Assembly (NCBI GenBank): GCA_903923815.1
Contig: CAIXZC010000007.1
Location: 1 to 39,887 of the forward strand
DNA: 39,887 bases
Direction of reading: 5' to 3'
From: an uncultured Myxococcales bacterium
GTDB taxonomy: Bacteria > Myxococcota_A > UBA9042 > CAIXZC01
The notes beneath the pieces were generated by a model. It ran no database searches, was not told the DNA's origin, and was given only the letters and a program-made list of their open reading frames with translations. The translations under genes and the position numbers were made by a program. Within the stretch, counting starts at the first letter, position 1. Each line of letters opens with the position of its first letter. This document shows, piece after piece, positions 392-27,146 of this stretch.

Positions 392-1061
<670 letters not shown>

Positions 1062-1075
<14 letters not shown>

Positions 1076-1973
1076 GCGCCTCTTCTACTTCCTTCGCCGG
1101 GGCCTCGCCAACCTGGTGGCCTCACCCCTGCTGGCCGTCATCACCGTCATGACCGTGGCCATGTCCCTGGTCCTGGTGGGCTTCATGGTCTTCGTCCTGT
1201 TGCGCGCTGACAGCGTCCTGGAGGAGGCCGGCGGCGGCTTCAAGATGACCGTCTACATGGACCCCACCCTGACCGTTCAGGAGTGCGAAGAGCTTGCCCG
1301 CGTCGTGCGCGAGCAGTTCCCCGAGGTGGACAGCGCCAGGGTCTTCTCGGCCCGGGACGACCTGGAGCGCAACCGCGCCCTGTTGCCCCCCGAGATCCTT
1401 GAAGGCCTGGAGGAGGACCTCATCCCCGCCCAGCCCTACCTGGAGGTCACCACCGACATCCGGCGCCTCAAACCCGAGCGCCTGGAGAACATGGTCGTCT
1501 GGTTCCGCTCCCTCAAACAGGTGGAGGGCGTGGACGAGATCCTGCTGGGCTCGGAGAAGCTTCGAGTGGCCTTCAGCCTCCTGGACTCCTTCCGCTACAC
1601 GGCGGTCTTCGTGGCCCTGGTGGTCACCCTCTCGGCCCTCTTCTTCATCTTCGCCACCATCCGCCTGTCGGCCCACGCCCGCCGGGAGGAGATGGACATC
1701 ATGCTGCTCATGGGCGCCTCCCGGGACTTCGTGCGCCTGCCCTTCTACATCGAGGGCGCCCTGGAGGGCGTCCTTGGCGGGGTCATCGGCTGGCTCATGG
1801 TGGCCGCCATGGAGCACCGCATGATCACCCGCCTGCGCACCGAGAACCTGCTGAACATCGACGGCACCATCATGCCGGGGCAGATCTGGGTGCTGTTCCT
1901 GCTGGGCGGCCTGCTGCTAGGCGTCCTCGGGGCCGCCATGGGGGTCGGCAAGTACCTCCGGCTCCAGTCATGA
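1062..1973 (+). CDS. ftsX: Cell division permease FtsX
   Basis: Start taken at ATG 1062 (MQLIERLFYF). Four-TM layout with a large loop after TM1. Motifs TIRLSAHARREEMDIMLLMGAS and VRLPFYIEG. Confidence 0.9.
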
Positions 1974-3082
1974 AGACGCTGCTGTTACTGGTGCTCATGC
2001 TCTGCTCCCAGGGCGAGCCCGCGCCCCCCCCGGTCCCCCCCCCTCACAGCCTGGGTGACGGCCAGTCCCTCCTGCTGATGGAGGTGATGGACATGCTGGC
2101 CGCGGAGGTCAAGCGCCTGGAGGAGGAGCGGCTGCGGCTGACCTCATCCCACGCCAAGGTCCAGGCCCGGCTGGCGGACATGGACTCCCACATCGAGGGG
2201 CTGGACCGCAAGGTGGCCGAGCAGCGGGACAAGGTGCGCAAGCTGATCCGCGCCGCCGTCCGCATGCGCGAGCCCTCCGAGTTGAACCTGCTGCTGTCTG
2301 CGGGCCGCTACCAGTCCTCCATGGTGTACCAGCGGGCCATCCGCAAGCTGCTGTCCCGGGTCCAGCACCGCATCGAGACCGTGGCCATCCAGAAGAAGCG
2401 CTGGGAGAACGCCAAGGCCAAGGCCGTGCGGGAAGCCCAGATCCTTCGCCAGGACGAGACCGAGGCGGCCCTGCGCCTGGCCGAGACCGAGAAGGCCCTG
2501 GAGAAGAAGAAGCGGCGCCTCAAGGAGCGCCAGGACAGCATAGCCGCGGTGTCCACGCTGTTCATGCTGGGCACGCTGGACGACGCCACCGGGCTGACGC
2601 CTCTTGCGCCCCCGGCCCCCGCCGGCGGCAGCGAGTTCGCCGAGCTGAAGAACCGCCGCCAGCTCAAGCTGCCCATCAGCCCCGGTCGCATCGCCAAGCA
2701 GTACGACCGCGCCCCCTCGGACGAACTGGGCACCGAGAAGATGGCCCGGGGGTGGATCATCACTCCCTACGTGGAAAAGGGGCGGCCCGTTCCCGACAAG
2801 GCCGCCATTCGGGCGGTTTTTGACGGGGTGGCGGTGTGGCAAGGAGAGATCCCTGGGTTTGGCATGACCCTGGTCCTCAAGCACGGCCCAATTCACCACA
2901 GTGTTTATGCAAATCTCTACAAGCTCTACATCGCCAAGGGCGCCCAGGTAAAGGCCGCCGACGAGATCGGCATGGTCAAGAGCCTGCGCAAGGGCAGCCC
3001 CCCTTACCTGTACTTCGAGGTCCGCGAGGATCGGGCCGCCGTGGACCCCAAGGGCTGGTTCCGGCTCCGCCCCATGAAGTAA
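1970..3082 (+). CDS. EnvC-like murein hydrolase activator (coiled coil + degenerate M23/LytM domain)
   Basis: Signal peptide, then coiled coil, then LytM-like C-terminus (IRAVFDG, GFGMTLVLKHG, SVYANL, YLYFEVR, AVDP..W). The HxxxD/HxH zinc ligands are absent. ATGA overlap with ftsX. Confidence 0.75.
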   Translation: MKTLLLLVLMLCSQGEPAPPPVPPPHSLGDGQSLLLMEVMDMLAAEVKRLEEERLRLTSSHAKVQARLADMDSHIEGLDRKVAEQRDKVRKLIRAAVRMREPSELNLLLSAGRYQSSMVYQRAIRKLLSRVQHRIETVAIQKKRWENAKAKAVREAQILRQDETEAALRLAETEKALEKKKRRLKERQDSIAAVSTLFMLGTLDDATGLTPLAPPAPAGGSEFAELKNRRQLKLPISPGRIAKQYDRAPSDELGTEKMARGWIITPYVEKGRPVPDKAAIRAVFDGVAVWQGEIPGFGMTLVLKHGPIHHSVYANLYKLYIAKGAQVKAADEIGMVKSLRKGSPPYLYFEVREDRAAVDPKGWFRLRPMK

Positions 3083-3107: not shown

Positions 3108-3136
3108 TTGACAGACGCCCAAGGCCATAGGATTAT
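3108..3136 (+). promoter_or_regulatory. Putative sigma70 promoter for pilMNOPQ
   Basis: Perfect TTGACA (3108-3113), 17-nt spacer, GATTAT (3131-3136). Confidence 0.45.
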
Positions 3137-3209
3137 TGCCCGCGAGAATGGGCAGGATTGTCGCAGCCAGGGACCACCCTTCTCTTGGCTTCGTTCCGGA
3201 GGGACTGAC

Positions 3210-4268
3210 GTGCTGGGAAACAAGAATCTGGTAGGTGTGGACATTGGCTCCCACTCCATCAAGATCTGTCTCCTGCGGGAAACGGCCAAGGGCCTGCATC
3301 TGCAGCGCTTCGACTTTGCGCCCCTGCCGCCGGAGGCCATGGTCGATGGGGCTGTGATGAACTTTGGCGCCGTGGTGGACCGCCTCAAGGACCTGGTCCA
3401 GGCCAACAAGCTGGGCGGCCACAAGGCGGCCCTGTCCGTGTCGGGGCACTCGGTGATCATCAAGAAGATCTCCCTGCCCGAGATGACCGACGAAGAGCTG
3501 GCCTCCTCCATCATGTGGGAGGCGGAGCAGTACATCCCCTTCGACATCAAGGAAGTGCACGTGGACGTACAGGTGCTGGACCCCAAGGCGGGCCAGGGCC
3601 AGATGGACGTGTTGCTGGTGGCCGCCAAGAAGGAGGTCATCAACGACCACGTCTCCATCGCCATGGAGGCGGGCCTCAACCCCGTCATCATGGACGTGGA
3701 TACCTTCGCCGTGCAGAACGTCTTCGAGCTGAACTATGGCTTCCCCCCCGCCGAAACCGTGGGCCTCATCAACATCGGCGCGTCCATGATCAACATCGAC
3801 GTGGTCAGCAACGGCATCCTCCAGTTCACCAGGGACATCTCCATGGGTGGCAACCTGCTGACCGAGGAGATCCAGCGCGAGCTTGGCGTGGGCTTCGAGG
3901 AGGCCGAACACTACAAGACGGGCGTGGGTGAGAGCGTCTCCTCCTCTGCCATCTTCCGCGAGGTCCAGCGCCTGGCCGAGCGCGTCTCCCACACCCTGGT
4001 CACGGAGATCCAGCGCTCCATCGAGTTCTTCAAGGCCACGTCCCTCTCCGGGGACTTGAGCCGCGTCTATCTGTCCGGCGGCTCCTGCCAGATTCCCGCC
4101 ATCATCAAGACCCTGGAGCAGCGCCTGGAGGTCAGCGTCGAGCTGATCAACCCCTTCAAGAACATCGTCATCGATACCAAGCGTTTTGACATCGCCATGC
4201 TGCAGCGGCTGGCCCCCTCCGCCGGGGTCTCCGTGGGTCTGGCCCTCAGAAGGAGGGGCGACAGATGA
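3210..4268 (+). CDS. pilM: Type IVa pilus assembly protein PilM
   Basis: GTG 3210 follows a GGAGG SD. FtsA/actin-like motifs VGVDIGSHSIK, EAEQYIPFDI, VLLVAAKKE, INIGAS, YLSGG, VGLALR. Confidence 0.93.
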   Translation: MLGNKNLVGVDIGSHSIKICLLRETAKGLHLQRFDFAPLPPEAMVDGAVMNFGAVVDRLKDLVQANKLGGHKAALSVSGHSVIIKKISLPEMTDEELASSIMWEAEQYIPFDIKEVHVDVQVLDPKAGQGQMDVLLVAAKKEVINDHVSIAMEAGLNPVIMDVDTFAVQNVFELNYGFPPAETVGLINIGASMINIDVVSNGILQFTRDISMGGNLLTEEIQRELGVGFEEAEHYKTGVGESVSSSAIFREVQRLAERVSHTLVTEIQRSIEFFKATSLSGDLSRVYLSGGSCQIPAIIKTLEQRLEVSVELINPFKNIVIDTKRFDIAMLQRLAPSAGVSVGLALRRRGDR

Positions 4269-4966
4269 TTCGCATAAACCTCCTCCACGGCGACAAGAAG
4301 AAGGCCAAGAAAGTAGCCGGGTCGAACAGCTCCCTTGGGGCCATGATCGTGCGGGTGCTGGTGCTGGAGATCATGGGCCTCTACTACTGGGGCCAGGTCA
4401 AGTCCTCCGCCCTGGAGGAGCAGCAGAAGATCCTCACCCAGGCCGAAAAAGAACTCAAGGAGACCGCCGAGCTCAAGAAGCAGCAGGAAGAGCTGCAGCT
4501 CAAGATCGACGAGCAGGAGACCCAGAATCAGATCTTCGAGACCCTGAAGAACGGCCGCGTGGGTGGCGCCAACCTGTTGCTGTATATGTCCTACATGCTG
4601 ACCAAACCCTCCCTGGAAAGCCGTGATGAGCGCGTGGTCCAGGAGCAGCTTGGCTGGACCACTGGCTGGGACACCGAGCGGGCCTGGTTCAACGGCATCA
4701 AGAACTCGGGCAGGGGCAGCATCGTCATCTCCGGTGAAGCCCTCACCCACAAGGACACGGATGAGGTCCTGAAGCGCCTGCGGGCCTGCATCTACCTGCA
4801 GAACCTGCGGCTGGTGGTGTCCGTCAAGAAGATCAACCGCGAGGAGTCCCCCGAGACCATCGCCTTCCGCTTTGAGGCCGTCCTCAACTACGACCCCAAT
4901 GTCGGCAAGGATCCCGAGGCCGAGGGCGACGGGGCCAGCAGCAAAGCCCCCACGGGGAGAGGTTAG
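4265..4966 (+). CDS. pilN: Type IVa pilus assembly protein PilN
   Basis: N-terminal MIRINLL PilM-binding motif, single TM, coiled coil. ATGA overlap with pilM. Confidence 0.85.
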   Translation: MIRINLLHGDKKKAKKVAGSNSSLGAMIVRVLVLEIMGLYYWGQVKSSALEEQQKILTQAEKELKETAELKKQQEELQLKIDEQETQNQIFETLKNGRVGGANLLLYMSYMLTKPSLESRDERVVQEQLGWTTGWDTERAWFNGIKNSGRGSIVISGEALTHKDTDEVLKRLRACIYLQNLRLVVSVKKINREESPETIAFRFEAVLNYDPNVGKDPEAEGDGASSKAPTGRG

Positions 4967-4968
4967 CC

Positions 4969-5616
4969 ATGGATAAGTTCAAGGCGCTCAAACCCGAACA
5001 GAAGCTCATTGTGGCGCTCCTCACGCTGGGCCTGCTGGCGGGCCTCTACTACGTCGCCGTCATCATGGACACGGACACCGAGCTGGCCACCGTCATCAAC
5101 GACATCTCCCGCAAGACCGCCGAGCGGGCCAAGTTCAAGGACTTCAAGGGTGCCTCCGAGGTCGAGGCCCTGAAGAACCGCTACGCCCTGGTCATGGCCC
5201 AGATTGAAGAGAACAAGAAGATCCTGCCCACCGAGGACCTGCTGGCCGAGTTCATCCACGGCCTGGAGAGCGACGCCGAGGACGCCGGGGTGCAGATCAT
5301 CTCCTACGAACCGGAGAACAAGGTCACCAAGGATTACTACGAAGAGATTCCCGTCCAGATGGAGATCCGGGGCACCTTCGTGGAGGTCGTGCGCTTCTTG
5401 AAGCTCATGGCCCTCCCGGGCAAGCGCCTTACGAATGTGGCCTCCATTGAGCTGTCCGTGGAGGAGAACAAGAAGAACCGTGAGGAGAGGCAGCGGCTGT
5501 TCCTGTTGGGTGCCGCGTCTCCCGAGCAGGAGACCATCCTGATCGCCAAATTTGTCACCACGGCCTTCACCTACACGGGCCTGGTCTCGGATCCGAAGAA
5601 AAAGAGGATGGAGTGA
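4969..5616 (+). CDS. pilO: Type IVa pilus assembly protein PilO
   Basis: N-terminal TM, KILPTE, DYYEEIPVQMEIRGTFVEVVRFL. Lies between pilN and pilP. Confidence 0.88.
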   Translation: MDKFKALKPEQKLIVALLTLGLLAGLYYVAVIMDTDTELATVINDISRKTAERAKFKDFKGASEVEALKNRYALVMAQIEENKKILPTEDLLAEFIHGLESDAEDAGVQIISYEPENKVTKDYYEEIPVQMEIRGTFVEVVRFLKLMALPGKRLTNVASIELSVEENKKNREERQRLFLLGAASPEQETILIAKFVTTAFTYTGLVSDPKKKRME

Positions 5617-5632: not shown

Positions 5633-6355
5633 GTGACGCCAAAACTCAGACGGGCCCTCCTGGTGCTTCTTCCCCTCGCACTCCTGGCGGGTTGCGGAGG
5701 CGAGGAGGCCAAGCCCATGACCATGGACCAGGCCCAGGGCACCCCTGCTGCCGCTGCCCCCGCCACCAAAAAGGGCGAGAACAAGCGCAAGGGTGATGGG
5801 GACTTCAAGGCCAACCCAGCCTGGGATAGGATCGCTCCACATTTCTTCGTGTTCGTTGGCACGCTTGACCGCGAACTCCACACGCGCAGCATGGAATGGA
5901 AGGCCCGGGATGCCTTCAAGAACAACTACGAGATCTTCTTCCCCCCCGAGCCCCCCAAGCCCACGGCCGCGGCGGAGAACAAGACCGACAAGCCGGAGGA
6001 GAAGAAGGGCCTGGTGATGGGCTTCTTCGACGCCATGAAGAAGGCCGGCGAGAAGCCCATGGAGCTTGAGTTGGAGGCCCGCAAGGCCAGCGAGGATCCC
6101 CTGGTGAAGAGGCCCCTGAAGGACTACCGCTTCCAGATCATCATGTCTGGGGTGGCCAACCCCGAGGCCCTGGTGGTGGACTCGGCAGGAATTACGCACA
6201 TGCTGCATGTGAACGACCGGATCGGTTCCGAAGGTGGCTTCGTCCAGGACATCCTCAAGAATGAGGTCCTGGTGAAGTTGCCTGAGGCGGAGGCGCCCGA
6301 GGTCATCTCGTTGGCACCCCCGGAAATGCCCGCTCAGCTGCGGTCTGCGCAATGA
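5633..6355 (+). CDS. pilP: PilP-like lipoprotein
   Basis: GTG start after GAGGAGG, lipobox LAGC, RDAF motif. C-terminal beta domain (DPLVKRPLKDYRF, ALVVDSAG, VNDRIGSEGGFV). Position between pilO and pilQ. Confidence 0.8.
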   Translation: MTPKLRRALLVLLPLALLAGCGGEEAKPMTMDQAQGTPAAAAPATKKGENKRKGDGDFKANPAWDRIAPHFFVFVGTLDRELHTRSMEWKARDAFKNNYEIFFPPEPPKPTAAAENKTDKPEEKKGLVMGFFDAMKKAGEKPMELELEARKASEDPLVKRPLKDYRFQIIMSGVANPEALVVDSAGITHMLHVNDRIGSEGGFVQDILKNEVLVKLPEAEAPEVISLAPPEMPAQLRSAQ

Positions 6356-6371
6356 GCGCTGGAGGAGAACC

Positions 6372-9300
6372 ATGAAAACGGTTCAATTTGCGATTCTGGC
6401 CATGTTGTTGCTTCCCCTGGCCCTGCAGGCGGCGCCGGACAACCGGCTCAAGGGCATCAGCGTGGAGGAGAACACCGAGGGCACCCTCATCACCATCGAG
6501 GGTTCGGGCACTCCCACCTTCAGCGCCTTCCGGCTGCAGGATCCCCCCAGGCTCCTGGTGGACATCGCCGGGGCTGAGGTGACGGGCCGGCAGGGCACCG
6601 TGGAGGTGTACAACGGGGTGGTGGCCCAGGTGGGCACCATCGCCTTCGGCAGCGGCGACAAGAAGACCGTTCGCGTCATCGTGACCTTCGAGAAGGATTC
6701 CCCCTACGACGTGCGCGCCGTGGGTCAACGGTTGCTGATTCTGGTGGATGGTGAGGGGCGCCGGGGAGCCGGTGGCGATACCCAGGTGGCCCAGCGCGAG
6801 AAGGAACACCTGGACAAGGCCATCTCCCGGGAGAAGACCCTGCTGGCCCAGCTTCAGACCGCCCGCGAAAAGGAAGAGACCCTGCGGGGCGAGGCCCAGA
6901 AGGCCCTCACCGAAGAGAAGAAGCTGCTGGACAAGGTGGCCGAAGAGAAGAAGCGCCTGGAAGAACTGCAGATGCAGGCGCGCCTGTCCCTGGCCAAGGA
7001 GCAGGAGCTGACCGAGCTGGCGAAGAACGCCACGGCCATGGCCGAGGAGCAGCGTGTCGCGGCGGCCCGGGCGGCGGAGTTGGAGCAGCAGAAGGTTGTG
7101 GCCCTCCAGGCCAAGCGCGTGAAGATTGAGGCCCTGAAGGCCGCCCTGGACAAGGAGCGGCTGGCGGCGGAAGAGGCCCGCGTGGCCCAGGAGAAGGCGG
7201 AAGAGTTGGCCCGCGCCCGGCGCCAGGCCATGGAGCAGGAGGCCAGCAAGGCCGAGGAGCTGCGCCAGGCCTCGGAGGAGGCCCTGCGGGAGCAGCAGAA
7301 GAAGCTGGAGATCGCCCGGCGCGAGGCGCTGCTGGCGTCCAATGAACAGGACGCGGCGGCCAAGTTGCGGGCCGAAGAGGAGCGTCAGCTCAAGCTGCTG
7401 GCCGAGGCGCGCAAGCAGCAGGAGGCCTTGCTGCAGCAGGCCACGGCGGCCCGGGAGGCTCAGGAGGCCACGGCTGCCAAGCTGCAGGACGAGAACCGCA
7501 AGATCGCCGAGCTCAACGAGCGCGTGAAGAGTGACTCCCAGCAGGTCGAGGCCAAAAAGCTTCGGGCTGAGGCGGAGGCCCGCAAGGCCACCCTGGAGAA
7601 GGAACAGCGCGAGCGGGAGGCCGAGGTGGCCCGGCTTGAGCGTCAGAAGGAAGAGGCGGCGGCCCGCGCCATCGAACAGGAAGCGGCGGCGGAGACGGCC
7701 CGGCTGGATGCCACCCGTACGGCGTCTGAGCGGGAGCAGGAACTGCAGGCCCAGGCCCTGGAGAAGCGGCGCAACGAAGAGGCCCTTGCGGCGGCCCAGC
7801 AAAGGCAGCTTGCGGCCACCGAGGCCAAGCTGGCGGCGGCCCGGGAGGCCCTGTCCAGCGAAGAGGCTCGGCGCAAGGTGCTGGCCGAGGCGGTGGAGCT
7901 TGACGCCAAGCGCGCTGAGGCGGCGGAGTCTGTGGCCAGGCTGCGGGCCGAGCACGACCACGCCATGGCCGAGAAAGAGCGCATCGAGCGCGAGGTCACC
8001 GAGACCAGGATCCAGTTGGACACCCTCAAGAAGGAGAAGTCCGAGCTGGAGGCCATGGTGGCCCAGCGCAAGTCCGAGGAGGCCAACCTCCAGACCATCC
8101 AGACGGACCGGAACAAGCTGGAGGAGGAGCGCTCCAAGCTGGAAGACGAGCGGGCCATGCTGGCCTTCCAGATCGACGAGAGCCGCATGAAGCTGGGCGA
8201 GTTTGACAAGGCCCGGGAAGCCAAGCGTCAGGAACTGAGCCGCATCGACGAGCGGATGAACCTGTCCTCCAAGGCCATCGACGAGGTCAATGCCCAGTTG
8301 GTGCTGGAGCAGGAGAACCTGCGGCGCATGGTGGATCAGCGCAAGGAAGAGGAGAAGCGGCTGGAGACCCTGCGGGAGAACATCCGGCAGCTTCAGGCCA
8401 ACAAGACCGCCTCGGACAACGAGACCGTGGGCAAGCTGCAGGGCGAACTGGCCACCAAGGAGCAGGCCCTGGCCGAGCGGGACAAACGTCTGGCCGAGCT
8501 GGAGACCCGCCTGGGCCGCCTGTCCGGGGAGCTGGACAGCACCCGCAAGCAGGCTGGCACCGAGTCCGACGAGACCGCCAAGCTGCGGTCCCGATTGGAA
8601 GAGCGCACCCGCGACTACGAGCGGCTGGACCGGGAGTACCGGGATGCCACGCGCCGTCTGGCCGAGCTGAAGGCCGGCCGGGACGAGGGCATGCGCAAGG
8701 CCGGGGAGCTGGAGACCAGACTGGAGGACAGCGTCCGGCGCATGGACGAGATCAACAAGGAGTACAACGGCCTGCTGGCAGAGCGCGAGCGCTGGGCCGA
8801 CATGAACAAGGCCGAGAAGCAGGAAGTCTCCAGGCTGAAGAAGGACCTGGCCAAGGGCCAGACCGAGTACGCCAAGCTGCTCAAGAGCAGGGAGGCCATG
8901 GAGAAGAAGCTGCTGGTCCTGTCCCGGGATCTGGCCCGCGCCGAAGAGGAGAAGGCCGGCCTGGAGCGTGGGCTGCAGGAGGCACAGCGGCAGTTGGAGG
9001 GCCAGCGGGGCGCCCTGACCGAGGCCCGGAAGCGCAGCGACGAACTGGAGCAGACCAGACAGGCCCGCGGCGAGGATCTGTTGAAGATCCAGGCGGACCT
9101 GGATGCCAGCCGGCAGGCCCTGGCGGGCTACGAGGCTGAGGTGGCCAGGCTGCGGCAGTCCGAGCAGCTTGGAGAAGCAGACAAGGCTCGCCTTGCGGAG
9201 ACCGAGCAGCAGCTGGAGGCCGAGAAGGGCCGCGGGTCCCAGTTGGACACCGAGAAGGACAAGCTGCAGCAGCTCATCGCGGCCCTGGGGGCCCAGCGTG

Positions 9301-12300
9301 AGGCGGAGAAGAACGAAGTGGAGCGGTTGGCGTTCCGGGTCAAGGAGCTGGAGGTCACCGGCAGCCAGGCCGACAAGGCCCTGCAGGACAGCGCCAAGAA
9401 GTTGGGCTCCCTGAAGGAGCGGCTGGACAAGGAACAGGCCCTTCAGGTGGAGCTGGTGGCCAAGATGGAGGCCAGCAAGGCCGAGGCCGCCGAGTGGAAG
9501 AACCGCTACGAGCAGCTGGTCGTGGCCAGCCAGAAGAATGATCAGGAAAAGAAGAACACCGAGGCTGAGGTCACGCGGCTGCGCGCGCACCTGGAGCAGC
9601 AGCGCAACGACCTGGACGCCCTGCGGCAGGTGACGGACCGCAACCGGACCTCCGGGGCGGAGACCACCGCCAGGTTCGAAGAGCTCCAGTCCCAGGTCGC
9701 CAAGGAGCGGGACCGGGCGGAGGCCGAGCGCAAGAATTCCGAGGCCCTCCAGGCCGAGCTGGCCAGCACCCGGGAGACCCAGGCCAAGGCCCAGATCGCC
9801 TGGAAGAACGAGCAGGCCCGCACCCTGGCCGAGTTGGAGACCCTGCGGGCCGCCGGCATGGCCCAGGAGTCCAAGATCAGCGAGCTGAAGGCCCAGTTGG
9901 CCAAGTCAGAAGAGAACCGCAACGGCGCCGAGGCCGAGGCTGAGGCGTTGGCCAAGGCCAAGACCGAGTACGAGCAGAGCCTGAAGGCCCGGGAGCAGGA
10001 AGTGGCCCGCCTGAAAGCGGAGCGCGACCTCGAGGCCCAGGCCGCCAGGGAGGCCCAGGACAACGCCCAGAAGGCCGACCAGGAGGAGCAGAACAACCTC
10101 CAGGCGCGGGAACGGGAGCTGGCCCGGTTGAAGGCCGAGCGCGACGCTGAAGCCAAGAGCGCCAAGGAGGCCCGGGAGAACGGCAAGCTGAGCCGCGAGC
10201 AGGAGACCAAGTACCAGGCCGAGCTGAAGCGCCGGGACCGGGAGCTCTCCCAAATGGAGGCCCAGATCGCCGACCTCAAGGCCAGCCAGGCGGCCCAGGA
10301 CAAGAAGAAGCAGGCCGAACTGGCCTCCCTCAAGAAGGAATATGACCGGACCCTTCAGGACCGGGAGAAGGAGATCGCTCGGCTGAAGGCCGACCGTGAC
10401 GCCGAGAGCGCCAAGGCAGCCAAGGCCCGGGACGGTGGCAAGTTGAACAAAGCCCAGGAGGCCAAGTTCCAACAGGAGCTCAAGCGCCGGGACGAGGAAG
10501 TGGCCAAGGCCGAGGCCGAGGCGGCCGCCCTCAAGGCCAGCTTTGAGGAAGCCAAGGCCCAGGCCCAGGCCGCCAAGGAGGAAGAGCTGGAGGCCGTCAA
10601 GACCGCCAAGGACGGCGAACTGCGGGCCCGAGAGGCCGAGATCGAGGTCCTCAAGGCCAAGCTGCTGGCGCAGAAGGTGGCGGAGCCCAAGTCCGCCGTG
10701 AAGGCCATAGACTTTGACGGCAGCAAGGGCCGCGCGGTGCTGAAGATCTCCGTGGACGGGCAGCCCAACTATCAGGTGGAGGCCCGCTCCGACAAGGACT
10801 ACCTGATGATCTTCGATGGCACCAGCATCCCCGCAGCCCTGCAGCGCACCCTGGACACCCAGGAGTTCGCCAGCCCCGTGGCCTGGGTCAGCAGCTACGA
10901 GGACCCGGGCCGCAAGGGTCGGACTGTGGTCTCCGTGCACCTCAAGGAGCCCGCCTCCAACAGCGTCATCAGCACCAATGGTTCGGTGCAGTGGTCCTTC
11001 AAGGGTGGGTCCGAGGCCGAGGGCACGGCATCCGCCGCGGCCCCCAGCGCCGGCGCCCAGACCGCCGTGGTGGGGCAGGCCAAGGGTGGCCCCCAGACCA
11101 ACGCCGCCGTGGTGACCGCTGGTCTGGCCAACCCCCAGAACCCCTTCGCCGTGGTGAACCCCAACCCCGGAAAGAAGAAGAAGAAGTACAGTGGCAAGCG
11201 CATCAACCTGTCCATCAAGGACGCGGACATCCAGCACGTGCTGGCCTTCCTGTCCCGGGTGGGTGGCGTAAACATCGTGACCAGCGAGGGCGTCCGCGGG
11301 AACGTGTCCTTCTACCTGGAGGACGTGCCCTGGGACCTGGCGCTGGACATGATCCTCAAGAGCTCCGGCATGGACTACGTGGCTGAGGAGGGCATCTATC
11401 GCGTGGCCCCCCAGGCAGAGATCCAGAAGGAGTACGAAGTCGCCCTGGACAAGCAGAAGAAGATCACCGAGCTCAAGCAGCTCCAGGTCAAGCTGATCCC
11501 CGTGAACTACGCCGACGCCGACGAACTGGCCAAGCAGGTCAAGAGCATCCTCAGCGACAAGGGCCAGATCAGCGTGGACAAGCGCACCAACACCCTTATC
11601 GTCAAGGACATCGAGGAGCACGTGGCGGCCCTGGATGATCTGGTGCGTCGCCTGGACGCCCAGACCCCCCAGGTCCTCATCGAGGCCCGCATCGTGGAGG
11701 CCTCCAACGACTTCACCCGTGAGGTGGGTGTCCAGTGGGGCGGCAGCCTCCAGGCCTCCCCCGAGTACGCCAACCAGACGGGCCTCATCTTCCCGTCGTC
11801 GGTGGGTCTGGCCGGTGGTTCTTCGGACCAGTCCTCCACCACCAACGGCCTGTTCCTCAACGGCAACCCCAACTACGCCGTGAACCTGCCCGCCGCCGCC
11901 GGCCAGGGCACCGGTGGTTCTATCGGCCTGAGCCTGGGCAGCGTGGGCGGGGCCGCCAACCTGTACCTGCGCCTCTCCGCCGCCGAGGCCGAGGGCGTCG
12001 TGAAGATCATCTCGGCGCCGCGCATCTCCACCGTGGACAACACCGCGGCCACCATCCAGCAGGGCGTGTCCTTCCCCGTCAGCGTGGTCTCCGCCCAGGG
12101 CGTCAACACTCAGTTCTTCGACGCCAACCTGAAGCTGGACGTGGTGCCCCACGTGACCCAGGACGGCAACATCCAGCTCAAGATCGACATCACCAAGAAC
12201 GAGCCGGACTTCTCCCAGGTGGGCGCCAACGGCAACCCCACCATCCGCAAAAAGGAAGCCCACACCGAGTTGCTGCTCAAGGATGGCGATACCACCGTCA

Positions 12301-12488
12301 TCGGCGGCATCTTCACCCGCAGCTCGTCCAAGAACTTCAAGAAGGTGCCGTTCTTTGCCGACATCCCCCTGCTGGGCTGGTTCTTCCGGTCCAACAAGGA
12401 GGCCGATCAGCGCTCCGAGATGCTGATCTTCATCACCCCGCGCATTGTGAATCGTCAGGCCGCGAGGGTGGACACCGTGGTGGACTGA
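6372..12488 (+). CDS. pilQ: Giant type IVa pilus secretin PilQ (AMIN - ~1300-aa coiled coil - AMIN - N0/N1 - secretin)
   Basis: Signal peptide. AMIN-like FRLQDPPRLLVDI. N0 motifs YSGKRINLSIKDADI and VPWDLALDMIL. Secretin motifs PQVLIEARIVEA, LKDGDTTVIGGIF, VPFFADIPLLGWFF, EMLIFITPRIV. Confidence 0.93.
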   Translation: MKTVQFAILAMLLLPLALQAAPDNRLKGISVEENTEGTLITIEGSGTPTFSAFRLQDPPRLLVDIAGAEVTGRQGTVEVYNGVVAQVGTIAFGSGDKKTVRVIVTFEKDSPYDVRAVGQRLLILVDGEGRRGAGGDTQVAQREKEHLDKAISREKTLLAQLQTAREKEETLRGEAQKALTEEKKLLDKVAEEKKRLEELQMQARLSLAKEQELTELAKNATAMAEEQRVAAARAAELEQQKVVALQAKRVKIEALKAALDKERLAAEEARVAQEKAEELARARRQAMEQEASKAEELRQASEEALREQQKKLEIARREALLASNEQDAAAKLRAEEERQLKLLAEARKQQEALLQQATAAREAQEATAAKLQDENRKIAELNERVKSDSQQVEAKKLRAEAEARKATLEKEQREREAEVARLERQKEEAAARAIEQEAAAETARLDATRTASEREQELQAQALEKRRNEEALAAAQQRQLAATEAKLAAAREALSSEEARRKVLAEAVELDAKRAEAAESVARLRAEHDHAMAEKERIEREVTETRIQLDTLKKEKSELEAMVAQRKSEEANLQTIQTDRNKLEEERSKLEDERAMLAFQIDESRMKLGEFDKAREAKRQELSRIDERMNLSSKAIDEVNAQLVLEQENLRRMVDQRKEEEKRLETLRENIRQLQANKTASDNETVGKLQGELATKEQALAERDKRLAELETRLGRLSGELDSTRKQAGTESDETAKLRSRLEERTRDYERLDREYRDATRRLAELKAGRDEGMRKAGELETRLEDSVRRMDEINKEYNGLLAERERWADMNKAEKQEVSRLKKDLAKGQTEYAKLLKSREAMEKKLLVLSRDLARAEEEKAGLERGLQEAQRQLEGQRGALTEARKRSDELEQTRQARGEDLLKIQADLDASRQALAGYEAEVARLRQSEQLGEADKARLAETEQQLEAEKGRGSQLDTEKDKLQQLIAALGAQREAEKNEVERLAFRVKELEVTGSQADKALQDSAKKLGSLKERLDKEQALQVELVAKMEASKAEAAEWKNRYEQLVVASQKNDQEKKNTEAEVTRLRAHLEQQRNDLDALRQVTDRNRTSGAETTARFEELQSQVAKERDRAEAERKNSEALQAELASTRETQAKAQIAWKNEQARTLAELETLRAAGMAQESKISELKAQLAKSEENRNGAEAEAEALAKAKTEYEQSLKAREQEVARLKAERDLEAQAAREAQDNAQKADQEEQNNLQARERELARLKAERDAEAKSAKEARENGKLSREQETKYQAELKRRDRELSQMEAQIADLKASQAAQDKKKQAELASLKKEYDRTLQDREKEIARLKADRDAESAKAAKARDGGKLNKAQEAKFQQELKRRDEEVAKAEAEAAALKASFEEAKAQAQAAKEEELEAVKTAKDGELRAREAEIEVLKAKLLAQKVAEPKSAVKAIDFDGSKGRAVLKISVDGQPNYQVEARSDKDYLMIFDGTSIPAALQRTLDTQEFASPVAWVSSYEDPGRKGRTVVSVHLKEPASNSVISTNGSVQWSFKGGSEAEGTASAAAPSAGAQTAVVGQAKGGPQTNAAVVTAGLANPQNPFAVVNPNPGKKKKKYSGKRINLSIKDADIQHVLAFLSRVGGVNIVTSEGVRGNVSFYLEDVPWDLALDMILKSSGMDYVAEEGIYRVAPQAEIQKEYEVALDKQKKITELKQLQVKLIPVNYADADELAKQVKSILSDKGQISVDKRTNTLIVKDIEEHVAALDDLVRRLDAQTPQVLIEARIVEASNDFTREVGVQWGGSLQASPEYANQTGLIFPSSVGLAGGSSDQSSTTNGLFLNGNPNYAVNLPAAAGQGTGGSIGLSLGSVGGAANLYLRLSAAEAEGVVKIISAPRISTVDNTAATIQQGVSFPVSVVSAQGVNTQFFDANLKLDVVPHVTQDGNIQLKIDITKNEPDFSQVGANGNPTIRKKEAHTELLLKDGDTTVIGGIFTRSSSKNFKKVPFFADIPLLGWFFRSNKEADQRSEMLIFITPRIVNRQAARVDTVVD
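9981..10665 (+). repeat. Degenerate in-frame repeats inside the PilQ coiled coil
   Basis: ARLKAERD/ARLKAERD/ARLKADRD units near 10002, 10119 and 10374 (39- and 85-aa spacing). The last two extend to ...GKL..QE.K[YF]Q.ELKRRD.E. Confidence 0.7.
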
Positions 12489-12514
12489 AGGCCAGTGGAA
12501 TTGGGAGGTCTGCG

Positions 12515-13345
12515 ATGAAAAAGATGATGCTGATGCTGGCGCTGCTTCCGGTGCTGTACTCCTGCGCCCCGGAGGGAGTGAGCCAGTCCTTCGTGGTCAC
12601 CGGCTGCACGCTGGTGGACTACCGAAACCAGTGCAAGCTGTCCACCACCGGCAACGTGACGGAGCTGCGCTCGGTGGGCATCCTGGACCTGCTGTTCACC
12701 AATAAGTACTGGGTGGCCCCGGTCATCATGAATGACACCAACCCGCCCACCGATGGCTCCACCATTGGCGGCAAGGGCATCTCCGTCCTGGGGGCGCACC
12801 TGTCCTACCAGATCGGTCAGCTTGGCGGGCAATACGACACCAAGAAGGTCATCAAGCCCTACAAGGTCTTCATGCCCGCGTCGGGCTTCATCAAGCCCGG
12901 CGAAATCACCACCATCATGTTGGAAGGCATCCCCGCCGAGATCGGCGCCCTTCTTGACCGCGACATGGCCTTTGACGAGCGCTACTCCGGCGGCTACATC
13001 GCCGTGACCATCCAGCTTGAGGGCGTCATGACGGACGGTACCAGCGTCATGTCCAACAAGTTCGTGTACCCGATCCAGCTTTGCCGTGGATGCCTGCTGT
13101 ACTACCCGATCCCGCTGTCCCAGTGCTGCAACGGCACCATCGGCGAGGTCTACATCTGCTATCCCGGCCAGGACGACGGTATCCCCTGCGACCTGGGCTG
13201 CTCGGTCATGGACATGTACGACCGCTACGCGGAGAAGAAGGCCATGCTGCTGGGCACGATAGACTCCCTGGCGGACCCCATCCCCAAGATGCACCTGCTG
13301 GAAGGCCAGTCCGACGAATTCGGTATCATCCAGGGCCAGCCCTGA
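12515..13345 (+). CDS. Cys-rich lipoprotein of unknown function downstream of pilQ (276 aa)
   Basis: ATG 12515 after GGGAGG. Signal MKKMMLMLALLPVLYSC with lipobox-like LYSC. Cys cluster YPIQLCRGCL...CYPGQDDGIPC. Confidence 0.75.
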   Translation: MKKMMLMLALLPVLYSCAPEGVSQSFVVTGCTLVDYRNQCKLSTTGNVTELRSVGILDLLFTNKYWVAPVIMNDTNPPTDGSTIGGKGISVLGAHLSYQIGQLGGQYDTKKVIKPYKVFMPASGFIKPGEITTIMLEGIPAEIGALLDRDMAFDERYSGGYIAVTIQLEGVMTDGTSVMSNKFVYPIQLCRGCLLYYPIPLSQCCNGTIGEVYICYPGQDDGIPCDLGCSVMDMYDRYAEKKAMLLGTIDSLADPIPKMHLLEGQSDEFGIIQGQP

Positions 13346-17168: not shown

Positions 17169-17197
17169 TTGACCGGTGCCCCGGGGCGGGTTAGGCT
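17169..17197 (+). promoter_or_regulatory. Putative sigma70 promoter for the FHA-GGDEF gene
   Basis: TTGACC (17169-17174), 17-nt spacer, TAGGCT (17192-17197). Confidence 0.45.
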
Positions 17198-17220
17198 TCG
17201 AACCCTGGAGTAGCCGCACC

Positions 17221-18159
17221 ATGAAGAAGATGACCGACGATACCACCAGGGTAACAGCCATGCACAACCTGTCGGATGGCGCATCCGACGCGGTTGATTG
17301 CCTGGTGCAGATCTATGGCAAGGCCCTGGGCAAGAAGTACGAGATGTTCGAGCCCCTGGTGACCCTGGGCCGGGATCCCCAGAACTCCATCGTGTTGGAT
17401 TCGGACTCCGTCTCCCGGCGCCACGCGGTGGTGGAGATCACCGACAAGGGCCGGGTGCTTCGGGACCTGGACTCCACCAACGGCACCTACCTCAATGACA
17501 TCCAGATCAAAAGCGCCGTCCTGTCCCAGAATGACCTGGTCAAGATCGGCGATACCATCTTCAAGTTCCTCAGCGGCAACAACATTGAGTCCCAGTACCA
17601 CGAAGAGATCTACCGCATGACCATCTGGGATGGCCTCACCCAGATCGCCAACAAGCGGCACCTCATGGATCACCTGGACAAGGAGTTCGCGCGCTGCCAG
17701 CGCTACAACCGCAACCTGTCCCTGGTGATGTTCGACATCGACTTCTTCAAGAACGTCAATGACACCTACGGGCACCTCACGGGGGACTACGTCCTGAAGG
17801 AGCTGTCCGATCTGCTGCGCAATCGCATCCGCCGCGAGGAACTGTTCGCTCGCTACGGCGGCGAGGAGTTCGCCATCGTCCTGCCGGAGTCCGACACCAA
17901 GGTTGCGTCCCGCTTTGCGGACATCATCCGGGCCAAGGTGGAGGACCACGTCTTTGAGTTCGAGGGCCAGCAGATCAAGGTGACCATCAGCCTGGGCGTG
18001 GCCTCCATGAACCTGGCCATGAAGACCGTCTCCGAGTTCATCGGGCAGGTGGACGCCGCCCTCTACGAGGCCAAGCGCCTTGGCAGGAATCGGGTGGTGG
18101 TGGCAGGAAACGTGGACGAACCCTCAGCGCCCATCAATCTGGACGAGCTTCACCCCTAG
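17221..18159 (+). CDS. FHA-domain diguanylate cyclase
   Basis: FHA motifs LGR, VSRRHA, DLDSTNGT. GGDEF domain with DGLTQIANKR, DIDFFKNVNDTYGH, ARYGGEEF, ALYEAKRLGRN. Confidence 0.92.
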   Translation: MKKMTDDTTRVTAMHNLSDGASDAVDCLVQIYGKALGKKYEMFEPLVTLGRDPQNSIVLDSDSVSRRHAVVEITDKGRVLRDLDSTNGTYLNDIQIKSAVLSQNDLVKIGDTIFKFLSGNNIESQYHEEIYRMTIWDGLTQIANKRHLMDHLDKEFARCQRYNRNLSLVMFDIDFFKNVNDTYGHLTGDYVLKELSDLLRNRIRREELFARYGGEEFAIVLPESDTKVASRFADIIRAKVEDHVFEFEGQQIKVTISLGVASMNLAMKTVSEFIGQVDAALYEAKRLGRNRVVVAGNVDEPSAPINLDELHP

Positions 18160-19402: not shown

Positions 19403-21619
19403 TCAGATTCTGCGGCGGGAGGACACCCGGAGGGTCGCCAGGCCCAGCAGCGCCAGGGCCAGCAGGAGGCCCGTGCTGGAGGAGGGCTGGGCCGCGGTGC
19501 TGCAGGAGCTGCCGCCCTTGCCACCGGTGGAGCTGCCCACGTCCTGGCCGCCCGTCTGGTCGCCCGTGGAGTCCGCGCCCTGGGAATCCGCCAGGCCGTC
19601 CACGCCATCCTTGTCCAGGGAAATATCGTCTCCGGGGCCCGCGCCATCGGGCGTGTTGATGGCGTCCTCACCTTCGCTGGTGTCGGTGGGCAGGACGGGG
19701 TCGATGCACTGGCCGTTCTCGCACTCCAGGCCCTCGGCGCAGGTGCCGCAGGAGAAGCCGCCGCCGTTATCGCCGCACTGCAGGCCAGCGCAGCCGGGAG
19801 GGAAGTCAAACTTGGGGTTGGTGCAGTCCTTGGGTTTGGTGCCGTCGGGGGCATTGCCCGAGCCACCGCAGCCGTACCAGCCGTCGGTGGACAGCCAGCC
19901 GCAGACACCGTCGCATTCGGTCACCACAAGGGTCTCTTCTTCGCAGTAGATCTCCACGTTGCCAAAGCAGCAGCCGTCGTAGGTGATGCCCACGCAGGGG
20001 TCCGCCACGCAGGCGCCCAGGGAGCACACGGTGCCGTTGCCGCAGGCGCAGTCCGTGGGGCAGCTGCTGCAGCTCTCGTCGTCGGAGCACTCGTCGTCGC
20101 CGCAGTTGTCCACCTTGCACACGCCGGCGCTGCACACCTGGCCGTCGCCGCAGCCGCAGTCCTGGGCGCAGTTCTGGCAGTTCTCGCCCTCGCCGCAGGT
20201 GTCGTCGCCGCAGCCGTTGGGCATGGGACAGGCACTGCAGTCGTTGCAGGCGCACTCCCACTTGGGGCCCCAGCAGCCGGGATCGGGCTGTTTGTCGGAG
20301 ATGCAGGCGCCGGTGTAGCCGCCCTCAGTGTTGTTGCAGGACCCGCCCACGCAGGTGCCATCCGGGACCCACTTCTCCAGGGGCAGGGCGGGGATGGTGC
20401 GGCTGATGCAGTGGATGGCGCCGGAATACAGCGAGATCTGATCCGAGTTGATACCCACGTGGGTCCAATCGGGCATGGCCTGCTTCCACACGGCCAGGGC
20501 CTGGGCCTCCCGGTCCTTGTCCACGGAGTAGATGGGCCAGAGGTTCAGCTTGGTGGTGCCGTCCGCGCTGACATACAGCGTGGAGTTGATGAAGGTGCGG
20601 GGGATCTCGCCGTAGCCGGGGTCGTCGCCGGGGTTGGGCATGACCATCCGGTACACCGTCATGGTGACGTCCTCGCCCAGGTCGATGCTCTTCAGCAGGG
20701 CCTCGTTGTCATCCATGCGCTTGGCGTTCTCCGAGTCATCCGCCACGTCGAAGTCGCCCAGGACGGCGCCATCCCTGGCGTAGAGCTTGAAGAACATGTC
20801 GATGTGGCCGGTGCCGTCGTTGGTGATGTCCTTGAGGATGATGGTCTTGTCGCAGGCGTAGTAGTCCTTGAAGATCTTGGACAGCTCGTCCCGGGAAAGG
20901 CCCGTGTTGGTCAGTTCCCGCTGGGTGGTGTAGCAGCGGCCCTCGCCGTCGGCCTGGAAGTTGCCGCCCTCGAGGGAGATGGGGGAGCGATAGGTGCTGG
21001 CACCAACCAGCCCGCCCAGGCGGGAGGGGATGGCGTCATCCAGGATGCGCTCGGGGTAGTAGACGAAATCGGCAAAGGCCACCTGATCGTCGTCGTTCAC
21101 CAGGGGCAGGGGGGCGTAGTCGATGGTCCAGATGGCGTCGTTGGGAAGCGTGAAGAACTTCAGCCTCTCGTCGATGGTGGCCTGGGAGGCCCCCAGGGTC
21201 TTGACCTTGCTGATCAGCGAATTCTTGACGGCGGTGCCCTCGTGGATGACCCATACCTCGCCGGCGGCCAGCGCGCCGTTGACCAGCTTGGCTTGGGTGT
21301 TGAAGACCTGGGCGTCGTCGGGCAGGTAGTCCGAGGCGGTCACGATCATGGCCTGCATGGGCTCCCACTCCTTCATGGCGCGGAAGGTGCCCGGGGCCGG
21401 CGGCTCGGTGATGGCGTACCACTGGGAATGGGAATCCCGATAGTCGCTGTAGTAGTCGGCCTTCTGGGCGGTCAGTTCACCAGCGGGCAGGGCGGTGGCG
21501 GGAAGGAACCCGGGTACGCGGCCGCCGGTAGCCACGGCCTCGCCGGGGGCATAGGCCTGCTCGGCACAGGACGCCAGCAGCAGAACGGCGCAGATGGAAT
21601 ACAGGGCAACGAGCTTCAT
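19403..21619 (-). CDS. Secreted agmatine/peptidylarginine deiminase-family protein with Cys-rich repeats and MYXO-CTERM-like tail
   Basis: Lipobox LASC. Family motifs [32 protein letters not shown]. Repeats like [20 protein letters not shown]-terminus GGSSCS + hydrophobic helix + RRR. Confidence 0.82.
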
Positions 21620-21824
21620 GGGACCTCCCACCTTTTCGGGGCTGTTCTTCAAACGCGCGCAACACTAACTAGCGTGACCCGCTTTGGCAATAGATTATTC
21701 CCGGCGCGGCCCGTGGCCTGCCACAAGAAAGTCCTTGCCTTTTTGGGCTAGAAAAAGATACTTACCCGCGGTCTGCCGTCATCTGGCGGCACAGGAACCG
21801 AGTCAGATTGGAAGGAGTCAAACG

Positions 21825-27095: not shown

Positions 27096-27146
27096 TCCGG
27101 TTGGGGCTTTCATTGGCGACAACGGTTTTCTTCAGGAGGTAACTTG

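Follow-up and report, generated by a model that had tools for sequence, protein, structure and literature searches.

In an uncultured freshwater Myxococcota MAG, the one type IVa pilus secretin PilQ is a 2038-aa protein encoded by one intact open reading frame; between its two AMIN domains lies a tract of about 1300 residues with the heptad pattern of a coiled coil. The window, the whole stretch of DNA that was analysed, is 39,887 nucleotides long. The protein is of a known kind, the PilQ secretins, and what is new is the coiled-coil form of an uncultured group; no published characterisation of a giant coiled-coil PilQ was found in the literature covered, which left most subscription journals outside. 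In our preferred reading, to which we assign a probability of roughly one half, a long helical tether holds a conserved, distal, wall-binding AMIN domain (AMIN1) far from the secretin, laterally along the wall.

The first-pass annotation had proposed an intact reading frame encoding a signal peptide, an AMIN domain, the long tract, a second AMIN domain, a linker and the N0, Secretin_N and Secretin domains. This arrangement was confirmed, with N0 as a probable domain and the domains placed by Pfam, our own AMIN HMM and TIGR02515 (Table 1). The GC3 of the reading frame is 0.91, which matches the coding-frame expectation at the 65% GC of the contig. The Pfam AMIN model matched two stretches of the product (57 bits, above cut-off, best at aa 29-119), and a genome-wide AMIN search with PF11741 returned nt 6456-6731 and 10704-10979 (40.3 and 27.8 bits, both above cut-off), in agreement with the approximate placements at 6440-6750 and 10695-11000 of the first-pass annotation. 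Over aa 1614-1681 the STN model (25.5 bits, cut-off 28.4) and the GspD N0 model (19.9 bits, cut-off 27) both fell just short, and the same region aligns to the N0 domain of solved PilQ and GspD fragments (e.g. 4ar0, E=2e-14). The AF2 pLDDT was below 50 over the modelled part of the linker, aa 1546-1560.

Table 1. Features of the pilQ locus (nucleotide positions in the window)
Feature	Position	Strand	Basis or remark
pilM	3108..4268	+	PF11104 PilM_2, 244.6 bits
ORF at pilN position	4265..4966	+	PF05137 PilN E=0.025, 15.1 bits, below cut-off
pilO	4969..5616	+	PF04350 PilO, 57.1 bits
ORF at pilP position	5633..6355	+	no Pfam or NCBIfam match
pilQ, whole ORF, 2038 aa	6372..12488	+	ATG start, no internal stop
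Sec-type signal peptide, aa 1-20	6372..6431	+	read by eye, no Cys lipobox
AMIN1 (distal, predicted wall-binding), aa 25-127	6444..6752	+	Pfam AMIN aa 29-119; own AMIN HMM aa 25-127
Helical heptad tract, aa 139-1435	6786..10676	+	no Pro/Cys; period-3.5 z=20.2; AF2 helices
Conserved coil island, aa 600-710	8169..8501	+	spans AF2 helix break aa 677-679; ortholog tiles and jackhmmer
About 3 degenerate ~85-aa protein repeats, aa ~1190-1420	9939..10631	+	self-match diagonals
AMIN2 (proximal), aa 1442-1545	10695..11006	+	own AMIN HMM; PF11741 27.8 bits; AF2 beta strands
Ala/Gly/Pro-rich linker, Lys run at its end, aa 1546-1607	11007..11192	+	sequence
Probable N0/STN domain, aa 1614-1681	11211..11414	+	sub-cut-off Pfam; TIGR02515 coverage; alignment to solved PilQs
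Secretin_N domain, aa 1706-1767	11487..11672	+	PF03958, 49 bits, above cut-off
Secretin domain, aa 1870-2026	11979..12449	+	PF00263, 160.2 bits, above cut-off

Assignment to PilQ is carried by TIGR02515 (IV_pilus_PilQ), whose score of 421.9 bits over aa 1608-2027 exceeds the cut-off of 284.35 and whose model was covered in full (positions 1-428); the GspD, SctC, MshL and HofQ models all stayed below their own cut-offs on the product. The closest solved structure is that of Myxococcus xanthus PilQ (3jc8, E=2.4e-154), with query aa 1419-2030 aligned to residues 317-896. The pilMNOPQ operon read from the sequence at first pass held for pilM (244 bits) and pilO (57 bits), but the reading frames at the pilN and pilP positions have no family match above cut-off; tblastn found counterparts of both in two related loci (L013 and L020), with the order unchanged. 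PilB (788.5 bits) and PilT (464.9 bits), both above cut-off, are encoded by the same genome on contig C234, and the only other secretin match in the genome, about 32% identical, adjoins a GspE-like ATPase on contig C445. PDB entries of solved PilQ relatives contain 12-15 chains, and by homology the giant PilQ would likewise form a gated outer-membrane channel of 12-15 subunits.

Could the gene be a chimera, an unrelated coiled-coil gene joined in silico to an ordinary pilQ? The source MAG is fragmented, with 482 contigs and 7.5% contamination, and one public contig of run X4 skips 433 bases at 7442-7876. Against this, the joint in that contig rests on only 21 letters on one side, with 37 foreign letters between, and public contigs of four runs, drawn from three studies, tile pilQ and bridge both AMIN/coil junctions. 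Record 10 of run X2 spans 6358-8021, and so the start codon, AMIN1 and coil, while the junction of coil and AMIN2 is crossed by X2 record 13 (10100-10908) and X4 record 22 (10395-10761). Runs X1 and X2 each covered 30 of 30 bins, with no indels reported. We consider a chimera extremely improbable, and misassembly was rejected on the strength of the bridging contigs and of 108 independently assembled proteins with the same AMIN-spacer-AMIN architecture. The pattern at the X4 joint is typical of other organisms or of repeats.

The absence of Pro and Cys from the tract, noted at first pass, extends further: the stretch between aa 111 and 1439 lacks Pro altogether (1327 residues; chance about 6e-29 at the 4.8% Pro found outside the run), and Cys is absent from the entire protein. 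The composition of aa 140-1435 is A 17.8, E 17.5, L 11.4, R 10.7, K 9.9, Q 8.3 and G 2.4%. The heptad signal at period 3.5 has z=20.2 relative to 200 shuffled sequences, the spectrum has its global peak at exactly 3.5, and the core positions are hydrophobic (position a L31/A12/V9/I7%, position d L33/A15%). There are 25 register shifts in the tract, the unbroken heptads extending over 262, 199 and 116 aa. No single-alpha-helix salt-bridge signal was found in the tract (62 observed, 59 +/- 6 expected). Attractive g-to-e' charge pairs showed no excess (26 against 27.7 +/- 4.2 in shuffled sequences), so a parallel in-register dimer is unsupported by that test.

AF2, run on the single sequence without an alignment, in which an E/K/R/A/L-rich sequence comes out helical almost by default, predicted aa 139-1435 to be helical, with seven breaks of 1-6 residues and a coil pLDDT mostly of 60-89. 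The predicted helices are 139-676, 680-799, 781-996, 998-1093, 1099-1179, 1186-1269, 1275-1354 and 1360-1435. The tract is therefore predicted to be helical, with a heptad pattern that suggests a coiled coil, and not disordered, as had been raised as an alternative. The single continuous helix of ~190 nm that was first proposed is an upper bound only, in view of the seven breaks and of the last ~340 aa of the coil, which are modelled as four helices of ~80 aa, ~12 nm each. These could pack together into a compact bundle of helices, and the reach would then be smaller. Helices 1186-1269, 1275-1354 and 1360-1435 coincide with the ~85-aa repeats (diagonals of 25, 22 and 20 matches in 40, shuffled maximum 17), with Gly-containing breaks between them; no DNA tandem repeat matching these protein repeats was found.

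The architecture is not a one-off. A total of 518 database PilQs matched, with lengths of 1120-3567 aa, and among 121 proteins examined 108 have exactly two full AMIN domains around a spacer of 406-1914 aa; the spacer in the window is the 13th longest of these 108. Many homologs carry comparable inserts. The heptad z exceeded 5 in 91 of the 108 spacers and was no higher than 5 in 17, and the median Pro content of the spacers was 0.43 per 100 aa, compared with 4.8 in the window's PilQ outside its Pro-free run. Hundreds of long-spacer proteins are already in databases under the name PilQ, a name that can conceal a 1300-residue module and calls for caution in annotation.

Within the same class every untruncated PilQ has at least 1123 aa. 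In our survey of the phylum, the open frames in 23 of the 26 rows from this class, the window's own genome included, were 1123 aa or longer; among the exceptions, one shorter frame is, judging from its coordinates, truncated by the start of a contig, and that of genome G159 is split into two frames. Only 9 of the 102 genomes of other classes with a match had frames that reached 1200 aa, and spacers across the phylum measured 19-1914 aa. In one genus belonging to the window's class (genome G169) the spacer is 337 aa long, Pro-rich and non-heptad (16 Pro, z=0); with the 17 spacers of low z, this indicates that a helical rod is not obligatory. The cultured Bradymonas sediminis (G052), of another class, has a PilQ of 1014 aa (WP_162687416.1, letter-for-letter identical to the NCBI record) with the same AMIN-coil-AMIN-secretin plan, a secretin part ~53% identical and a coil about one fifth as long (278 aa, 2 Pro, heptad z=21.6, ~41 nm); no paper discussing this coil was found. 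The AMIN-coil-AMIN plan has been inherited across the whole class, with shorter forms in other Myxococcota.

The coil itself changes rapidly. It shares 28-35% identity with the coils of 13 orthologs and 27-33% with the same coils after shuffling, whereas the C-terminal part is 56-75% identical to the same orthologs; in all 13 comparisons AMIN1 (39-63%) is better conserved than AMIN2 (24-40%). Protein pairs otherwise 100% identical carry coil indels of 50, 50, 50, 50, 175, 32 and 56+39 aa, and one 99.9%-identical pair has a 32-aa difference in coil length. Coil length shifts fast by in-frame indels, and the sequence drifts freely outside two conserved stretches. A precise ruler, one of the functions first proposed, is unlikely, since it fits poorly both with the 19-1914-aa range of spacers and with differences of 32-175 aa between otherwise identical proteins. 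The other functions first proposed, a lateral scaffold, a pole capture arm and an adaptation to an expanded periplasm, are hypothetical. The coil indels, the background similarity of the ortholog coils and the Pro-rich linker of G169 would also be expected of a mostly neutral runaway expansion, in which a helical low-complexity linker changes by slippage or recombination, its length has no function and only foldability and export are selected. We think this improbable: heptad phase, Leu at a and d and the near-absence of Pro persist over deep divergence, the class has no untruncated frame below 1123 aa, only ~230 aa of the window's PilQ are recognisably repeated, with no tandem repeat in the DNA, and it is expensive to export 1300 more residues with every one of 12-15 subunits.

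Two parts of the coil are conserved: its beginning, which adjoins AMIN1, and an island of ~105 aa at aa 600-710. In each of 5 orthologs, tiles of the island at aa 608 and 638 scored above the reversed control, and jackhmmer with the island matched 75 of 124 proteins, with no match in the reversed database. At 60 bits or more there are 24 distinct island sequences (65-102 bits), from proteins only ~54-68% identical to the window's PilQ from AMIN2 to the C-terminus; in more distant carriers the island scores 16-40 bits or has no match. Lying 181-473 aa from AMIN1 and 104-841 aa from AMIN2, it keeps no constant geometry. Its conservation is suggestive of a specific partner or of a hinge, beyond what a plain tether would predict. 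The island could belong to a scaffold between machines, in which coils of neighbouring secretins pair antiparallel or the island recruits a periplasmic protein, giving a polar lattice and not individual anchors. Conservation of the island in a coil otherwise drifted to background, together with the missing charge signal of a parallel dimer, would suit such a scaffold; its variable distances to both AMIN domains and its weakness or absence in distant carriers speak against it, and we give it little weight.

The order of parts is that of SlpA, which, according to PMC9388160, has an N-terminal wall-binding domain, a coiled coil and a C-terminal outer-membrane barrel. SlpA, OmpM and Omp-alpha are described there as connectors or spacers of Deinococcus-Thermus, Negativicutes and Thermotogae, with a predicted coil of 45 nm in Omp-alpha. 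Those proteins combine SLH with a trimeric porin-like OMBB and have coils that span the periplasm, whereas the giant PilQ combines AMIN with a secretin and has a coil several-fold longer. A Pfam search found no SLH domain in the giant PilQ, and with a secretin as its barrel membership of this connector group was rejected; the likeness is functional only. The giant coil might similarly stand perpendicular, as a spacer between outer membrane, wall and inner membrane that folds back several times or spans an unusually wide periplasm and sets the envelope distance. The order of parts shared with SlpA, the ~12-nm helices near the end of the coil and the shortest coils, such as that of G052, which approaches the predicted Omp-alpha length, lend this some appeal. 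However, aa 139-1093 are 955 residues with only two breaks of one to three residues, and the absence of Pro, with no Gly in aa 174-608, leaves few turn sites. The register shifts are not mirrored around aa 677-679, the 262 aa after it being unbroken and the 262 aa before it holding several. The ~100-fold range of length in the phylum and the differences between otherwise identical proteins fit poorly with a fixed envelope dimension, and a perpendicular spacer seems to us rather unlikely.

In the preferred reading, the lateral tether, the tract would form a coiled-coil rod, probably paired with neighbouring protomers of the 12-15-mer. Since the coil far exceeds what could stand across a periplasm, it would have to lie sideways along the wall. 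The secretin would be held by AMIN2 to the peptidoglycan just below it, and AMIN1 would attach to septal or polar peptidoglycan as far as ~150-190 nm away, giving each pilus machine a radial set of long guy-lines. Such lines may trap the machine in the polar zone and distribute or cushion the force that retraction puts on the outer membrane, with selection acting on helicity and approximate reach and not on exact length. A more elaborate version is speculative: the 12-15 arms of each ring, ~150-190 nm long, alone or paired and tipped with AMIN, might lie in the periplasmic plane as a cytoskeleton-like polar "spider-web" of elastic guy-lines, with the island docking a partner and reach tuned from strain to strain by coil indels. 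Machines would then be positioned over the polar cap and mechanically coupled to the sacculus during retraction. To our knowledge, no longer coiled coil would then be known from a periplasm, and the protein would be the first secretin to carry a long-range tether of its own.

The polar placement of type IV pilus machines, and how an outer-membrane pore meets very large retraction forces, are active questions, and current models are built on PilQs with AMIN domains next to the ring. Throughout one bacterial class, the two AMIN domains are instead set apart by the equivalent of 60-280 nm of helix, with lengths that vary between strains. This variation is a natural experiment on AMIN-wall contact, be it for capture radius, load spreading or machine spacing, and with the shorter coil of the cultured B. 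sediminis the question becomes accessible to genetics and cryo-ET.

In M. xanthus, the AMIN domains of PilQ bind septal and polar peptidoglycan and recruit it to the poles by diffusion and capture, according to PMC10653833, in which the word "coiled" does not occur. That protein (901 aa; 3jc8/3jc9) shares N-terminal AMIN domains followed by N0 (probable in the giant PilQ), N3, beta-lip and secretin domain; it has three AMIN domains on flexible linkers, whereas the giant PilQ has two, with a ~1300-aa heptad helix between them. De Souza et al. (2008) described proteins of delta-proteobacteria combining AMIN with TolA-like charged helices and listed separately, as the only PilQ architecture, AMIN + STN + Secretin_N + Secretin; a coil inside a secretin goes unmentioned. 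The first-pass view that the protein is unusual beside studied PilQs is borne out by PDB PilQ chains of 571-901 aa. Those of Pseudomonas aeruginosa, Vibrio and Neisseria (571-761 aa) have zero to two AMIN domains, short linkers and about one third of the giant PilQ's length, and their N0/N3/secretin core aligns to query aa ~1600-2030 with E of 1e-56 to 1e-78.

With a GC3 of 0.91, the reading frame under study is recognisable as the coding one, and we confirmed that its product truly belongs to the PilQ family. Against TIGR02515, the PilQ model for the secretin of type IV pili, it scored 421.9 bits (cut-off 284), and it fell under the cut-off of each of the GspD, SctC, MshL and HofQ models. Among the Pfam families, AMIN was matched over its cut-off in two stretches (57 bits), as were Secretin_N and Secretin, and the STN and N0 matches at residues 1614-1681 were just under theirs. 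The closest solved structure is that of the M. xanthus PilQ (3jc8, E=2.4e-154), with an alignment that spans the proximal AMIN domain (AMIN2) to the C terminus. A genome-wide search of the 3.49-Mb MAG found no AMIN domains beyond these two. PilB and PilT, both over cut-off, are encoded elsewhere in the same genome, and the sole other secretin match there is about 32% identical and adjoins a GspE-like ATPase. The reading frame, Pfam domains, AMIN positions and composition agree with the first-pass annotation, whose coordinates and description of this gene were correct.

Features of the window, with positions in nucleotides unless residues (aa) are given
Feature	Position	Strand	Remarks
ftsE	392-1075	+	upstream of pilM
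ftsX	999-1973	+	upstream of pilM
Coiled-coil M23 peptidase	1970-3082	+	weak EnvC-like matches; directly upstream of pilM
pilQ ORF	6372-12488	+	ATG start, 2038 codons, no internal stop
AMIN1 of PilQ	6456-6731		AMIN search across genome
Conserved island of the coil	8169-8501		aa ~600-710
AMIN2 of PilQ	10704-10979		AMIN search across genome
Secretin_N of PilQ	aa 1706-1767		Pfam, over cut-off
Secretin of PilQ	aa 1870-2026		Pfam, over cut-off
FHA and GGDEF diguanylate cyclase	17176-18159	+	4.7 kb downstream of pilQ
749-aa ORF	19403-21652	-	lipoprotein-like N terminus; Porphyromonas-type peptidyl-arginine deiminase domain
Giant lipoprotein-like ORF 1	27144-32690	+	1848 aa; short Met-zincin DUF4953 match and DUF4397 match
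Giant lipoprotein-like ORF 2	32703-37190	+	1495 aa; short Met-zincin DUF4953 match

A fusion of a coiled-coil gene with a normal pilQ during assembly would produce the same arrangement. Public assemblies from four lake or freshwater metagenome runs, belonging to three studies, tile window positions 6000-12900 at 95% identity or more and without indels. One contig (6358-8021) crosses the start of the gene, the distal AMIN domain (AMIN1) and the beginning of the coil, and two others (10100-10908 and 10395-10761) cross the junction of the coil with AMIN2. The best-matching runs may be the source sample itself; two later studies contain the sequence too. A single joint in one run (X4) skips 433 bases, and it was discounted because one side consists of 21 letters and 37 foreign letters lie between. 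No chimeric join was accepted, and the contigs that bridge both junctions make a chimera very unlikely.

The tract between the two AMIN domains is rich in Ala, Glu, Leu, Arg, Lys and Gln. There is no proline between residues 111 and 1439 and no cysteine in the entire protein; at the 4.8% proline found elsewhere in the sequence, the chance of a 1327-residue proline-free run is about 6e-29. Hydrophobic residues recur with a period of exactly 3.5 (windowed heptad signal against shuffles, z=20.2). Once the register was assigned, the composition came to L31/A12/R11/V9/I7% at position a and L33/A15% at position d, with charged residues or Ala at positions b, c, e, f and g. The 25 register shifts include one each 30-50 residues in the N-terminal third (residues 130-560), and the middle of the tract contains unbroken heptad runs of 116, 262 and 199 residues. 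A single-alpha-helix (SAH) domain was rejected, there being no i-to-i+4 acid-base excess and a clear hydrophobic seam. The g-to-e' charge pairs of a parallel in-register dimer were not enriched in the coil.

AlphaFold2, run on the tract without an alignment (coil pLDDT mostly 60-89), predicted helices at residues 139-676, 680-799/781-996, 998-1093, 1099-1179, 1186-1269, 1275-1354 and 1360-1435. Together, the heptad period, the composition of positions a and d and these predicted helices indicate, as had been proposed, that the tract is helical and heptad-patterned rather than disordered. The length of about 190 nm originally estimated for a continuous helix, at 0.15 nm per residue, is better taken as an upper bound; in the prediction about 140 nm (residues 139-1093) is nearly continuous, and the final ~340 residues form four helices of about 80 residues with Gly-containing breaks between them. 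Internal repeats were sought by a diagonal identity scan instead of self-BLAST, because shuffled coils gave matches of about 200 bits from composition alone. The sole recognisable repeat consists of roughly three degenerate ~85-aa copies overlapping the last three of the ~80-residue helices. Tandem Repeats Finder detected no DNA repeat corresponding to it and only two arrays of 21 bp x ~2.3, so this coil did not arise by a recent expansion of DNA repeats.

The architecture extends well beyond this window. Residues 1440-2038, from AMIN2 to the C terminus, were used to search proteins 1120-3567 aa long, and 518 matched at E<=0.001; being restricted to long proteins, this search gives no share among all PilQs. 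The named matches carry the annotation PilQ and are assigned to MAGs of Myxococcota, Myxococcales or Deltaproteobacteria, so that the AMIN-coil-AMIN arrangement is plainly visible in public databases already. We examined 121 proteins, the query and the 120 matches listed. Exactly two full AMIN domains occur in 108, and the remaining 13 are fragments starting inside the coil or AMIN1. Among these 108, the spacer measures 406-1914 aa (median 748, with that of the window's PilQ the 13th longest), bears a heptad signal of z>5 in 91, and has a median of 0.43 Pro per 100 aa; only four spacers lack proline entirely. Homologs with a comparable insert are thus numerous.

The gene was present in 41 of 41 whole genomes of relatives and matched in 128 of the 151 genomes of a phylum sample. 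The same class accounts for 26 rows of that sample, our own genome included, and in 23 of them the open frame is no shorter than 1123 aa and reaches up to 2668 aa. One of the shorter frames is cut at a contig start, judging by its coordinates, and another pilQ (G159) falls into two frames (1000 and 844 aa), whether through a frameshift, a stop or an error in sequencing. In other classes, only 9 of the 102 matching genomes reach 1200 aa. Among the 14 loci cut out for inspection, the same class shows a spacer of 1914 aa (G164, z=19) and, in one genus (G169), a Pro-rich, non-heptad spacer of 337 aa with no coil; a genome of another family (G055) has a PilQ of 729 aa with a spacer of 19 aa. Outside the class, coiled spacers of 278 aa (z=21.6), 416 aa and 682 aa occur in G052, G046 and G050, respectively, the first in a protein identical to the NCBI PilQ of the cultured Bradymonas sediminis. 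The giant coiled-coil spacer is a class-wide lineage trait. In the ortholog from the same genus (locus L013), a run of N, rendered as X in the translation, separates AMIN1 from where the coil starts, and the ortholog's length of about 2089 aa from Met is provisional.

Across 13 orthologs, the C-terminal part is 56-75% identical, and the coil, at 28-35%, is no better than the orthologs' shuffled coils (27-33%). AMIN1 (39-63%) exceeds AMIN2 (24-40%) in all 13 comparisons. Conservation within the coil is seen in two parts, the initial ~60 residues past AMIN1 and a ~105-aa island. Tiles of the island outscored a reversed control in five of five orthologs, and jackhmmer with the island matched 75 of 124 proteins; 24 distinct island sequences reached at least 60 bits, and the reversed database gave no matches. 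The island covers residues 677-679, where the first 950 residues have their sole predicted helix break, and could be a hinge or docking site. Its distance to AMIN1 and to AMIN2 varies among homologs. A symmetric hairpin that turns at the island was rejected, since the arms of the homologs are very unequal and the register shifts are not mirrored.

AMIN2 lies about 60 residues from N0, and the better-conserved AMIN1 caps the distal tip of a helical rod that would be many times longer than the width of any periplasm. We infer as the mechanism, and as the simplest reading of the coil, a lateral tether or guy-line. Such a tether would widen the radius of capture and distribute or cushion the load that the wall bears, and selection would favor helicity and rough reach rather than exact length. 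Seven otherwise 100%-identical pairs differ only by in-frame coil indels (50, 50, 50, 50, 175, 32 and 56+39 aa), and the 99.9%-identical pair P0023/P0026 by 32 aa; the length variants are P0037-P0043, P0013/P0014, P0086/P0087, P0109/P0110 and P0023/P0026. Each such difference reflects either a strain-level length allele or a repeat that collapsed in short-read assembly; the latter could account for some of them. A ruler was entertained in the first-pass annotation; a precise one fits poorly because coil length is polymorphic, by 32-175 aa in otherwise identical proteins. Instead of a tether, the coil may be a spacer that stands perpendicular, in the manner of SlpA or Omp-alpha as these are presented in passages of PMC9388160, a scaffold between machines or for a partner, at which the conserved island hints, or the product of largely neutral expansion.

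The pilMNOPQ setting originally assigned to the gene holds in part: Pfam places pilM and pilO directly upstream, and no family confirms the ORFs that occupy the pilN and pilP positions (PilN, E=0.025; no PilP match). Locus L020 contains pilMNOPQ, and in the same-genus locus L013, which is cut at the M23 gene, the end of that gene precedes pilM. In three family-level relatives (L015, L016 and L018), a tblastn search of the ~4 kb preceding the giant pilQ found no match to PilM, PilN, PilO or PilP. The ftsEX-envC-pilMNOPQ synteny is therefore not universal, and pilQ does not always lie within a pilMNOPQ cluster in the family. In the window, a septal-wall remodelling module (392-3082) adjoins the gene of a secretin whose AMIN domains supposedly read the septal wall.

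No description of a secretin with an internal coil was found, by title, abstract or passages, in literature on PilQ, AMIN, secretins, Myxococcota, Anaeromyxobacter and Bradymonas lying outside subscription journals and supplements (including those of PMC6060248 and PMC10653833), in keeping with the earlier claim of novelty. The 2008 AMIN paper treats the combination of AMIN with TolA-like helices, listed for delta-proteobacteria, as an architecture distinct from that of PilQ. In a 2018 survey of myxobacterial type IV pilus systems, every gene is drawn to the same length, and the word "coiled" is absent. Passages of a 2023 M. xanthus paper (PMC10653833) describe the linkers as flexible. The architecture is confirmed: a PilQ whose giant coiled-coil spacer is undescribed and occurs class-wide. 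It is striking, testable and common to many relatives; its function is putative.

Farther downstream, the two giant lipoprotein-like ORFs are tandem paralogs. A 3341-aa ORF on the opposite strand (27132-37157, -) was rejected as an antisense shadow, with a GC3 of 0.57 versus 0.92-0.93 for the real frames.
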